From NCBI GenBank assembly GCA_000004985.1, contig GG738848.1: DNA of 64,000 nt; one strand, written 5' to 3'. The notes under the pieces are model-generated. The model was not told where the DNA came from and made no database searches. It saw only the letters and a program-made list of their open reading frames with translations. The stretch's first letter is position 1. Each line of letters starts with the position of its first letter. The translations under genes and the position numbers were made by a program. Source of the DNA: Naegleria gruberi (taxonomy: Eukaryota). Shown piece after piece: positions 48,888 through 51,310 of the stretch.

Positions 48888-50057
48888 CTATTGATAGGTA
48901 ATCAAATATTCAGGATAGGCTTGCTTATTATCATAGACAATAATTTCCTGTCCTCCCCATCCAGTAACACTATCAAATCCCTGCGGAGCAATCTTAATCG
49001 TCTGCATCATATTCATATTAGCATCATATGAATGACCAACAAGTACTCTCACAATGAACATTCTTCCATTATTACTATTACCAGCATATCCGAGAGAGTA
49101 GGAAGCATTGGGACTAAAGTAAATTCCATTTCCAAATTTCCCACTATTACTCACTCTTGCATCGAAACCTTCCTTGGCAATTAAATCAGCAAATTGTTGT
49201 TGAGTTCCGTGGAAGAGTTGTTTCTCATTGTGGTTGGCTTTCATGTTCTGCTTTTGAAGACTGTACCAATTCCATCGAATGTAATTTTCAATTCGTTCAA
49301 TTTTGAGAATGGTTTTACCTGTGGAGGTTGAGGAAAAGAGCTGAGAACAATGTTGAAACTCTTTGGAGGAGGTGGAAAGTGTTACTATTCGAAAGTGTGG
49401 TTTCATGAGAGGGTTTTTGGAGAGTTTGGGAGGATTTTCCCATTCCTTTGGCCATGAAGAGATGCAATTCACTTGTGTGTTGCTGGTTGAATTGGTTGCC
49501 TTGCTTTCATGTATAAATGAATAGCAATGTGAAATATCTCCAGATAGATACTTTTGACAGGAAGTAGCATCTTGGCATGTATGGAAATAGTGAAGGCAAT
49601 GCTCTTTCTGTTGGAGTTTAGTACACTTTGAATCGTATTTGCATGGATGGACGAATCTGGATCTGTGAACAGAATCAGTAATCATGGAACAGTTTGCTCC
49701 CTTCTTACATGGATGATAATACTTTTCACCATGATCAACATGATCCCTATAGTTTGTTTTGGTACATTTATCCCAATGTTTACAAGGCACCTTGTCTTTT
49801 AATTCATTAACTTTGGTTGAAGTTGATGATTTCGTTGTTTTGCTGCAGCTTGGTGATGAGGAATGGCTGGTTGTTGGTGTTGTACTTGTGGATTGGATTG
49901 TGGATTGTTGTGGTTTGACGTAATTGACAGGAAGAAATTGTGGATTAGCTCCTGTTGTCATGTATCCAACAATTTGTGGCACCGTTCCTTGAGGGATATT
50001 TTGTGGAGGTTGGGATGAAACACTTGGTGTGGGCAATGTTGGATTGTTTTGCTTCAT
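48888..50057 (-). CDS. PARP catalytic-domain protein with three PBZ-type (C2H2 poly-ADP-ribose-binding) zinc fingers and a Pro/Gln/Thr-rich N-terminus.
   Basis: Fingers: [45 protein letters not shown] and [21 protein letters not shown]. Catalytic region: LFHGTQQQF...[20 protein letters not shown]...[21 protein letters not shown]. Confidence 0.75.
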   Translation of the reverse strand: [389 protein letters not shown]

Positions 50058-50143
50058 TTTTTTGATAGTGTGAATTGAGAATTTTCCATGTCAGCCTTTT
50101 CTGACAAGCGCAAAGATTAAAAAAAATATTAACAACTGACACG

Positions 50144-51310
50144 ATGCATCAGCCAAACAATCCGAATGGCACAAATAATAATAATTGGCAACAGTTTCCG
50201 CAACAGCAAATCTATTTGCATCAGCAACCACAAGGTCAAGTATTTCCGCACCAACAATTACCAATGTATTGTCAACCGTACCAAATTATTCAAATTCCTA
50301 ATGAAATGATTCAACCATCAACACAACAAGTTTCATCTCAACAAACAATGCTACCAAACGTGATGCTCAGTTCCACTTCAACTTGTCCACAAGATTTTCA
50401 CAATCAAGTACCAGAAAGAGAGGATTTTTGCACTGATTGGAGATTATGTTCTGAAACAAAAGATCAGAAACACAGATGCACCAAAAGACATTTATGTACC
50501 ATCAAGAATTGCTCCAAAACTAGTGATAAGGTTCATGTTGGCAGATTCTTGCATTATTGTAAATATGGTGAAAAGTGTCGTCACATAGATGATGATAATC
50601 ATAATCATAACTTTATTCATCCATGCAAGTATAAGGGAGATTGTAAAAAGCTTGGAGACATTATGCACAGAATTTTCTTTACCCATCCAACAATAGCTGA
50701 CAATGGCTTGTATCCAAGATCTTGGGGAAAGGTGTTGGACGATCATTGTAAATGTGTTAAGCTTTCACATAGCTCTTCAGAATTCAAAGAGGTAGAGAAA
50801 ACATTTATTCAAAGAATTAATCACAGCCATCCAACTGCTCAAGTAATCGACATTGAAAGAGTGGAAAATGCCAAGTTATGGAGAGCTTTCTCAATTAAGA
50901 AATCAGAAACCATTCACAAGAATCAAAATATCAAAGCTGAAAATCAAGTGAAAACACTCTACCATGGAGCTGAAGAAACAGCAGTCGATGCCATCACCAA
51001 AACAGGATTTGATTATAGACGATGCCAAGTTGGACATTATGGACATGGAAATTATTTTGCAGTCAATGCTAGTTATAGTCATGGTTATGCCAAGCCATCA
51101 ACTTCTGATGGTAGTAGAAGGATAATTGTTTGTAAGGTAGTTGTTGGAGAATCTCTCAGAGTAGCACAGAAGGATAATACTCTGAGAAGACCTCAGGATA
51201 AGACAACAGGTAAAATGTATGATTCAGTACAGGGAGGACCAACAGGAACTGAATATGTAGTATTCGATAACGAATCTCCATATCCTGGATATATTGTAAT
51301 TTACAAATAA
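50144..51310 (+). CDS. Paralogous PBZ zinc-finger PARP protein, divergently transcribed from the gene at 48888..50057.
   Basis: Fingers: CTKRHLCTIKNCSKTSDKVHVGRFLH, CKYGEKCRHIDDDNHNHNFIH and CKYKGDCKKLGDIMHRIFFTH. Catalytic region: LYHGAEETAV...GHYGHGNYFAVNASYSHGYA...GTEYVVFDNESPYPGYIVIYK. The two start codons are 86 bp apart. Confidence 0.75.
   Translation: MHQPNNPNGTNNNNWQQFPQQQIYLHQQPQGQVFPHQQLPMYCQPYQIIQIPNEMIQPSTQQVSSQQTMLPNVMLSSTSTCPQDFHNQVPEREDFCTDWRLCSETKDQKHRCTKRHLCTIKNCSKTSDKVHVGRFLHYCKYGEKCRHIDDDNHNHNFIHPCKYKGDCKKLGDIMHRIFFTHPTIADNGLYPRSWGKVLDDHCKCVKLSHSSSEFKEVEKTFIQRINHSHPTAQVIDIERVENAKLWRAFSIKKSETIHKNQNIKAENQVKTLYHGAEETAVDAITKTGFDYRRCQVGHYGHGNYFAVNASYSHGYAKPSTSDGSRRIIVCKVVVGESLRVAQKDNTLRRPQDKTTGKMYDSVQGGPTGTEYVVFDNESPYPGYIVIYK

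Follow-up and report, generated by a model that had tools for sequence, protein, structure and literature searches.

Divergently transcribed PARP paralogs of Naegleria gruberi carry four tandem, divergent PBZ-like zinc fingers

We analyzed a 64,000-nucleotide stretch of the Naegleria gruberi genome (contig GG738848.1; hereafter, the window) with a focus on two divergently oriented genes, referred to here as P1 (minus strand) and P2 (plus strand). On balance, we lean toward the reading that they encode two paralogous small ADP-ribosyltransferases, each composed of a disordered N terminus, four PBZ-like zinc fingers serving as a reader module, and a catalytic domain of PARP12/14/15-like type with an H-Y-E triad. 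PBZ fingers are regarded in the prevailing view as rare, strongly specialized domains that read poly(ADP-ribose) (PAR). The fingers of P1 and P2 fail the standard tests for this domain; family-level comparisons support their placement in a PBZ-like subfamily that is divergent and mostly escapes detection by current models.

The two genes and the spacer between them were located as follows.

48888-50057, minus strand: gene P1, from the list of open reading frames (ORFs), encoding a 389-amino-acid PARP with PBZ-like fingers in a single exon, stop codon included
50144-51310, plus strand: gene P2, from the ORF list, encoding a 388-amino-acid PARP with PBZ-like fingers
50058-50143, no strand: 86-bp spacer between the start codons, which holds or overlaps both promoters and 5' untranslated regions

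A previous sequence-only reading of this DNA had described the genes as a head-to-head pair of paralogs with their ATGs 86 bp apart, and its coordinates for both genes and for the gap were exact. Both ORFs are intact. All 389 residues of P1 are identical to N. gruberi XP_002682164.1 (NAEGRDRAFT_62784; UniProt D2V174, D2V174_NAEGR), a sequence named "predicted protein / Poly [ADP-ribose] polymerase" in NCBI and UniProt. The GenBank N. gruberi model for P2 (P0122) has 215 amino acids, begins at the internal Met174, within finger 4, and leaves out the low-complexity region and the finger array; with this start, the fingers of P2 were hidden from earlier surveys. Orthologs in which the fingers are conserved support the complete 388-amino-acid ORF. 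P1 and P2 align over nearly their full length (BLASTP, 32% identity across 378 columns, E = 3e-46), and by this comparison they are divergent paralogs, as had been proposed.

N-terminal to the catalytic domain, each protein is divided into two parts.

49785-50057, minus strand: P1 N terminus (residues 1-91), disordered and rich in S, T, P, and Q
50144-50428, plus strand: P2 N terminus (residues 1-95), of low complexity and rich in Q, P, and N
49509-49784, minus strand: P1 fingers (residues 92-183), four tandem C2H2 units (C92-H115, C117-H137, C139-H159, and C161-H183)
50429-50686, plus strand: P2 fingers (residues 96-181), four tandem C2H2 units (C96-H116, C118-H137, C139-H159, and C161-H181)

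The low complexity reported for both N termini was borne out: S, T, P, Q, and N together make up 64% of the first ~90 residues of P1 and 58% of those of P2 (Q, 23%; P, 13%; N, 11%), and the AlphaFold2 (AF2) model of P1 has a predicted local distance difference test (pLDDT) score below 50 over residues 1 to 81. Three fingers per protein had been claimed; regular-expression matching and residue coordinates gave four, and the earlier anatomy was right save for this count. The fingers repeat with a period of ~22 residues, the final His of each being set off by a single residue from the first Cys of its successor. Their spacing over all eight is C-x5-C (x4 once), then x7 (or x9 or x10), then H-x5-H; the form C-x5-C-x7-H-x5-H occurs in five of the eight, the exceptions being one C-x4-C and Cys2-His3 spacers of x9 and x10. 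Across eight four-finger relatives, drawn from Naegleria, Willaertia, and environmental sequences, none of the 16 ligand positions varies, and the ligands are also invariant in a six-member alignment that includes relatives with 7 to 10 fingers. Such invariance across relatives indicates that the finger pattern did not arise by chance, and the alignments identify the array as a real conserved module. Naegleria and Willaertia also show little or no variation in the W of finger 1, in the F/Y-x-H motif, or in the H-Y-E triad. In the AF2 models, the finger region of P2 has a mean pLDDT of 83.5, and a disordered linker of ~30 residues joins the fingers to the catalytic domain. One family member from a JGI metagenome (P0005; 529 amino acids) carries ten fingers.

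The C-terminal halves contain the catalytic domains.

48891-49415, minus strand: P1 PARP domain (residues 215-389), Pfam PF00644, E = 6e-20
50729-51307, plus strand: P2 PARP domain (residues 196-388), Pfam PF00644, E = 3e-23
49209-49211, 49119-49121, and 48945-48947, minus strand: P1 triad H283, Y313, and E371, respectively
50963-50965, 51053-51055, and 51251-51253, plus strand: P2 triad H274, Y304, and E370, respectively

PF00644 scored 72 bits on P1 and 82.7 bits on P2, against a cutoff of 26.7. By sequence, the nearest solved chain is human PARP12 (2pqf, E = 5e-24), followed by PARP15 and PARP14, ZAP, and the tankyrases; PARP1 ranks far behind PARP12. A Foldseek search with the AF2 model of P1, which is poor overall (mean pLDDT, 58) and confident across much of the catalytic domain, returned the same ranking (PARP12 2pqf, E = 4e-17; target-normalized TM score, 0.78). 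The His (LFHGT in P1, LYHGA in P2) and Tyr (GIYFS and GNYFA) of both proteins align with the His and Tyr of PARP12. The third triad position is ambiguous by one position relative to PARP12, HMMER placing a gap just before the last strand. The P2 segment GPTGTEYVVFDNESPYPGYIVIY, however, aligns ungapped to tankyrase-2, with E370 on the Glu of the "...AEYVIY..." motif, which we take to be the tankyrase-2 catalytic Glu; from this alignment and the paralogy of the pair, E371 of P1 would be the equivalent residue. The claim that each protein has a PARP domain with the catalytic Glu retained thus holds for H283/Y313/E371 in P1 and H274/Y304/E370 in P2. This Glu is kept in nine of the ten family members whose C terminus is present. 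The exception, P0005, has His at that position ("AEKHTIVYE") and may be an inactive or mono-transferase variant.

No WGR, regulatory, WWE, or CCCH domain was matched by Pfam in P1 or P2, and an NCBIfam scan of the two proteins gave no match. Assignment to the clade 1 DNA-repair PARPs (PARP1/2/3-like) was considered and ruled out on the lack of WGR and regulatory domains and on the nearest relatives, which are PARP12/14/15; judged by these comparisons, P1 and P2 are not PARP1-like DNA-break sensors.

Kinship of the fingers to PBZ domains emerged at the level of the family. A profile built from the four-finger region of eight relatives (profile A3) was run against 177,635 distinct PDB sequences, and its sole match at E ≤ 10 was the tandem PBZ of APLF (2kuo, 2kqb-e), at an E of ~0.4 that is not significant alone. 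In this alignment the four ligands are in register, and APLF has a one-residue deletion between Cys2 and His3. Against 1.84 billion representative proteins, profile A3 gave 318 matches at E ≤ 1e-3 and 94 at E ≤ 1e-10, mostly uncharacterized. The named ones came from Naegleria fowleri, N. lovaniensis, Willaertia magna, Pharyngomonas kirbyi (PARG plus PBZ), the malawimonad Gefionella (PolyA_pol), and the rotifer Adineta vaga; the finger-PARP family to which P1 and P2 belong has so far turned up only in Naegleria, Willaertia, and environmental sequences. A Pfam scan of 93 of the A3 matches found PF10283 (PBZ) in 21 (best E = 2e-43), PARP in 17, Exo_endo_phos (CCR4-like nuclease) in 7, microbial-type PARG in 6, RING families in 3, PolyA_pol in 2, NADAR in 1, and any single CCCH family in at most 3. 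The wider family is accordingly fused to ADP-ribose enzymes (PARP, PARG, and NADAR) and to adenylate-polymer enzymes (CCR4-like nuclease and PolyA_pol).

Pfam-positive PBZ proteins were retrieved by profile A3 at whole-library E values down to 2.6e-10, the value obtained for a bridging protein (P0265) that scores 146 bits in five stretches with the Pfam PBZ model. In P0265, canonical fingers with a six-residue (x6) Cys2-His3 spacer, such as CSYGADCYRDDAEHWAKYSH, adjoin the x7 finger CHYGMSCTKLDDEKHTARFDH, and this x7 finger (CHYGMSCTKLDDEKH) closely resembles finger 3 of P1. A spacer census of 143 A3 matches counted 563 x7 fingers versus 219 canonical x6 fingers, mixed within the same arrays, so that x7 is the commonest form in the wider family; x6 is also present in some orthologs' fingers (e.g., P0003). 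On a hidden Markov model (HMM) of APLF-type PBZs, 56 family fingers scored a mean of 5.1 bits versus −2.0 ± 0.43 for ligand-fixed shuffles, and in the reverse comparison independent APLF-type PBZs scored 17.3 bits on the family single-finger HMM versus 1.7 ± 0.6 for shuffles. The PBZ relationship had a P of 8e-5 by hhalign. Columns held in common with canonical PBZ are Gly at Cys1+3 (~68%), Y/F at Cys1+2, a D/N that precedes His3 by three residues, and an F/Y that precedes His4 by two (~85%); the Y-R-K-N-P core that follows Cys2 is not shared. Together, these comparisons support a detectable remote homology of the fingers to bona fide PBZ domains.

The sequence-only reading had called the fingers PBZ type and had named beforehand a failure to match PBZ profiles as the outcome that would overturn this label. 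That outcome was obtained: the best single-finger score with PF10283, for P2 finger 3, was 8.6 bits (E = 2.5) against a cutoff of 22.7. The part of the claim that stands is a divergent PBZ-like kinship, which comes from the family-level searches, and on these comparisons the label is defensible only as "divergent PBZ-like." Nor did any of the eight fingers conform to the published PBZ consensus, [K/R]xxCx[F/Y]GxxCx[K/R][K/R]xxxxHxxx[F/Y]xH (PMC4756826, PMC4030884), although the terminal [FY]-x-H is present in seven. A phmmer search of the finger regions against the PDB returned nothing relevant. CCCH identity was also considered and rejected, as neither the pattern of ligands nor their spacing agrees with C-x7-8-C-x5-C-x3-H. 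The CCCH families gave sub-threshold, partial matches to the C-x5-C half of a finger only. The power of such searches was gauged with a two-sequence APLF PBZ profile, which listed APLF only and no CHFR chain when run against the PDB, where CHFR PBZ structures exist (2xoc and 2xoy). Searches with the sequence of one finger thus have little strength, and their failure to find a match tells little; with a domain of only ~25 residues, sequence methods are low in power. A 70-amino-acid APLF query against a collection of 5.8 billion sequences recovered, through its word filter, the narrow "CYRKNP" set only.

The model we favor assigns each protein the role of a reader-writer. The finger array would read, in multivalent fashion, a polymer of adenine nucleotides (ADP-ribose or PAR most probably) and would dock the enzyme on targets that are already modified, whereupon the catalytic domain would add further ADP-ribose. 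ADP-ribose or PAR is favored as the ligand because of the PBZ homology and the fusion of the family's fingers to PARP, PARG, and NADAR; from these relationships we infer PAR binding by the fingers. The two APLF fingers bind multivalently and offer a model for the tandem array (PMC4030884).

Several observations weigh against this model. PF10283 matched nothing on the whole proteins, on the four-finger regions, or on nine orthologs. Among the eight fingers, none has the six-residue Cys2-His3 spacer (here 7 to 10), none has the basic pair after Cys2, and none has an aromatic at Cys2+1 or +2; [FY] at Cys1+2 occurs in three, and the full Cx[FY]G in P2 finger 3 only. The E values from the large library are sums over weak repeats in Cys/His-rich sequence, with high bias terms. 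Foldseek matches to the P2 finger model all have E ≥ 0.3 for so small a unit, and the first of them is Nab2 zinc fingers 5 to 7; also on this list are the CHFR PBZ (26 columns; root mean square deviation, 1.8 Å; 31% identity) and the APLF tandem PBZ. Polymer synthesis requires an H-Y-E triad, yet a triad of this kind does not guarantee it (PARP3 and PARP4), and neither the sequence nor the triad alone distinguishes a polymer product from mono-ADP-ribose. The fusion partners of CCR4/Nocturnin-like EEP and PolyA_pol type point to RNA or poly(A). Finally, as known for SNM1A, a PBZ without critical residues may fail to bind PAR (PMC4756826).

Some of these points lead to a possible, if doubtful, alternative in which the fingers, as small zinc knuckles in tandem, read RNA or poly(A) by binding adenosine-rich single strands and bring a PARP12-like mono-ADP-ribosyltransferase to ribonucleoproteins, making P1 and P2 functional analogs of PARP12, PARP7, and ZAP, with PAR not the ligand. 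The catalytic domain is indeed nearest PARP12 by both sequence and fold, and PARP12, PARP7, and PARP13 have N-terminal RNA-binding C3H1 fingers (PMC4245714). The PBZ fold is itself most like that of tandem C3H1 fingers that bind single-stranded RNA (PMC4030884), and the Nab2 entry that nominally heads the Foldseek list is bound to A11G RNA (E = 0.3). The same finger occurs on CCR4/CNOT6L/Angel2/Nocturnin-like EEP and PolyA_pol proteins, encoded by neighboring genes in N. lovaniensis and N. fowleri and found in Gefionella, and the fingers in the window are without the post-Cys2 residues that are invariant in the APLF-type set and make the canonical PAR contacts. Yet the ligands are C2H2 with PBZ-like geometry rather than CCCH, the APLF PBZ is the only PDB sequence matched by the profile, and in the 93 scanned proteins PBZ greatly outnumbers the other finger families (21, versus at most 3 for any CCCH family). 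PARP, PARG, and NADAR partners (24 of 93) also outnumber EEP and PolyA_pol partners (9 of 93), and Pfam found neither a WWE nor a CCCH domain in P1 or P2. A further alternative, to which we give little credence, is that the fingers are structural or protein-interaction zinc knuckles without a nucleotide ligand or that the two genes are a duplicated pair in decay with little functional role. The fingers in the window are more degenerate than those of several orthologs (P2 finger 4 reads "CKKLGDIMH" versus "C[KSRN]YL[NS]DPLH"), and Pfam sees nothing on them; against this stand the near invariance of the 16 zinc ligands, the finger 1 W, the F/Y-x-H motif, and the H-Y-E triad across Naegleria and Willaertia, the intact state of both ORFs, and the strong skew of the family's domain partners toward nucleotide-polymer enzymes.

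The arrangement of these genes was compared with that in related amoebae. In N. lovaniensis (PYSW02000017.1; locus L001) the order from the left is a SIR2 gene (minus strand), the P2 ortholog (minus), an 81-bp divergent spacer, a gene for an EEP protein with fingers (plus), a gene for a PolyA_pol protein with fingers (minus), a gene of 531 amino acids (minus), a 137-bp divergent spacer, the P1 ortholog (plus), a gene of 507 amino acids with C-terminal fingers (plus), and an E1 gene (minus). The gene content of N. fowleri (VFQX01000030.1; locus L002) is the same; FDP41_002899 is its P1 ortholog and FDP41_002903 its P2 ortholog. In both species the PARPs point apart with three genes between them. 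Five genes with the same PBZ-like finger, encoding the two PARPs, the CCR4/Nocturnin-like EEP protein, the PolyA_pol nucleotidyltransferase, and the 507-amino-acid protein, form a conserved cluster (L001, 2769-13467; L002, 1619-11507). A tblastn search of the 10 kb to each side of the Willaertia P2 ortholog gave no P1-like gene.

In N. gruberi, the 64-kb window contains neither the EEP-finger gene nor the PolyA_pol-finger gene, and one further ORF of the cluster region adjoins P1.

47316-48707, plus strand: ORF of 463 amino acids with an EEP-like C terminus ("GSDHIPIF") and no Pfam match at E ≤ 1e-3

This ORF is the ortholog (37% identity) of the unannotated 531-amino-acid gene of N. lovaniensis; it lies tail-to-tail with P1 in N. 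gruberi and head-to-head with it in N. lovaniensis. Because gene order differs among the species, the direct head-to-head contact of P1 and P2 is best explained as a lineage-specific rearrangement of an older finger-gene cluster. The cluster also suggests a more speculative idea, which we consider quite improbable: that the x7 finger is a distinct, unrecognized reader of adenine-nucleotide polymers that wires ADP-ribose writers and erasers (PARP, PARG, and NADAR) to poly(A)-tail enzymes (CCR4-like deadenylase and PolyA_pol). If true, the five-gene cluster in Naegleria would point to cross talk between PAR signaling and mRNA tail metabolism.

Other features of these loci were observed in the relatives. 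A gene encoding SIR2 and zf-UBP, whose product is NAD+ consuming, directly adjoins the P2 ortholog in both species (L001, 1181-2683; L002, 11647-13298) and was not seen beside P2 in the N. gruberi window. Several finger-coding stretches of N. fowleri lie outside called gene models (e.g., 9434-9922 and 1619-1792). Both N. fowleri PARP orthologs are split into two tblastn pieces, which abut at L002 3248-3257 and 11320-11322, and the N. fowleri model P0127 ends early ("...SSNVHVSCHDW"), a pattern that hints at short introns or at errors of frame in these models.

That P1 and P2 share a promoter region, as had been proposed, is forced by the geometry, since both promoters lie within or overlap the 86 bp, and co-regulation of the two genes is possible. 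It is unlikely, in our judgment, that the spacer is a dedicated bidirectional promoter that induces both PARPs together, for example after DNA damage. Such a role would suit the separation of the ATGs by 86 bp, the shortest divergent spacer between long ORFs in the window, and the paralogs of N. lovaniensis and N. fowleri also point apart within one cluster of ~7 kb. The adjacency itself is not conserved, however: three genes separate the orthologs in both of these species, and the N. lovaniensis PARPs share their 81- or 137-bp divergent spacers with different genes. Divergent spacers of ~80 to 140 bp to unrelated neighbors are found at the N. lovaniensis loci and are ordinary at Naegleria loci in this compact genome. 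The spacer contains a perfect 6+6 palindrome, TGTCAG-N6-CTGACA (50089-50106), plus a third copy of CTGACA, which would also suit this role; the palindrome lacks significance, with at least one match in 15 of 100 shuffles. The proteins themselves offer no link to a damage response, Pfam having found a WGR or regulatory domain in neither, and a literature search for expression data on either gene found none.

Two other results concern the DNA around the spacer. A 13-nucleotide inverted repeat (50041-50053 and 50151-50163, 92% complementary) falls on the conserved 5' ends of the two paralogous coding sequences (MKQNNP and MHQPNNP) and, by its position, is a DNA trace of their common origin. A scan of the locus for sigma-70 promoters and terminators gave results at shuffle level, and this type of scan is irrelevant to a eukaryote.

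Beyond this locus, the window holds one more PARP gene.

2459-2902, minus strand: third PARP catalytic domain, with H-Y-E, at the C terminus of ORF 2450-5698

ORF 2450-5698 (minus strand) encodes a long coiled coil, a protein kinase (Pfam Pkinase, 8e-33), and a PARP domain (7.5e-22) that is 32% identical to that of P2. Ankyrin repeats are found where this ORF begins and also in an exon upstream of it, at ~6356-6592 (minus strand), the gene having at least one intron; the Pfam signal for Ank is faint, and the ankyrin motifs were read directly. With P1 and P2, this gives the three PARP catalytic domains that had been counted in the window. By eye, the third domain appears to be a close relative of two "unplaced" N. 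gruberi PARPs, 72525 and 80603 (Citarelli 2010). The window as a whole has ~33% G+C, long ORFs densely packed on both strands, and 11 scattered tRNA genes, a makeup that fits the compact, intron-poor genome of an amoeboflagellate. The tRNA genes are dispersed over 16226-58125 and include four tRNA-Met(CAT) and two tRNA-Pro(TGG) genes; several lie close together on opposite strands (19541-20174 and 53366-53604). At 10736-12382 and 23678-25405 (both minus strand) are genes for a hybrid histidine kinase (HisKA, HATPase_c, and a partial receiver) and a chromo-domain protein.

Taken together, these results place the Naegleria genes in a family that comprises several hundred protein clusters or more and in which a single protein can carry as many as ~17 PBZ-like fingers in its array, which Pfam mostly misses (a PF10283 match in just 21 of 93). 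Recognizing this family would lengthen the list of candidate ADP-ribose readers. Two PARPs are added to the N. gruberi inventory of evolutionary surveys, and one truncated gene model is corrected. The proteins are small (~390 amino acids), and with a reader array joined straight to an H-Y-E domain they are tractable. The head-to-head layout, as a lineage-specific rearrangement, is not a conserved regulatory unit. The wider interest is modest and lies in the large, under-annotated PBZ-like finger family and in the conserved cluster of genes that carry the finger.

Neither gene figures in the earlier inventories. Citarelli et al. analyzed six N. gruberi PARPs, and P1 and P2 are not among them (PMC2964712); the P1/P2 family is likewise not among the N. 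gruberi PARPs in Perina 2014 (PMC4245714), and a literature search found no paper on NAEGRDRAFT_62784 or on Naegleria PBZ-PARPs. The "unplaced" PARPs 72525 and 80603 resemble P1 and P2 in being short and in ending with a PARP domain that has an H-Y-E triad. They are nevertheless different genes, and according to the authors of that survey they are without a known N-terminal domain, where P1 and P2 have a finger array (Citarelli 2010, PMC2964712).

Compared with the PBZ domains of APLF and CHFR (PF10283, zf-CCHH), the Naegleria fingers have the same Cys2His2 knuckle with C-x5-C ... H-x5-H. In some of them [FY]-G follows Cys1; D/N precedes His3 by three residues, the final [FY]-x-H is the same, and tandem occurrence and fusion to ADP-ribose enzymes are shared as well. 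They differ in a Cys2-His3 spacer that is longer by one to four residues (x7 to x10 versus x6), in missing the Y-R-K-N-P core of the APLF type, and in scoring below the Pfam threshold. The linker between the two fingers of the APLF construct is 15 residues, whereas in Naegleria it is a single residue.

Human PARP12, PARP7, and ZAP, which combine C3H1 fingers, WWE, and a clade 3 PARP domain, provide a second comparison. They resemble P1 and P2 in the catalytic domain, which is the nearest known (2pqf), and in the small zinc-finger array N-terminal to it; unlike them, the Naegleria proteins are without WWE, and their fingers are C2H2 rather than CCCH. The third triad residue is Glu in Naegleria where PARP12 reads "dpsIfvif," the Ile of which presumably completes an H-Y-I triad in PARP12.

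PBZ-PARP fusions have been reported from Dictyostelium, Entamoeba, Capsaspora, and Branchiostoma, as have PBZ repeats on a PARG of Adineta vaga (PMC4245714), so that the architectural theme has already been described. P1 and P2 resemble the PBZ-PARPs of these four genera in the joining of a PAR-reader finger, here putative, to a PARP catalytic domain and are set apart from them by a catalytic domain of PARP12/14/15-like type, by the lack of a WGR or regulatory Pfam match, and by divergent x7 fingers. The fusion of a reader finger to a PARP is thus a known theme, which the Naegleria pair presents in a divergent and poorly annotated form.

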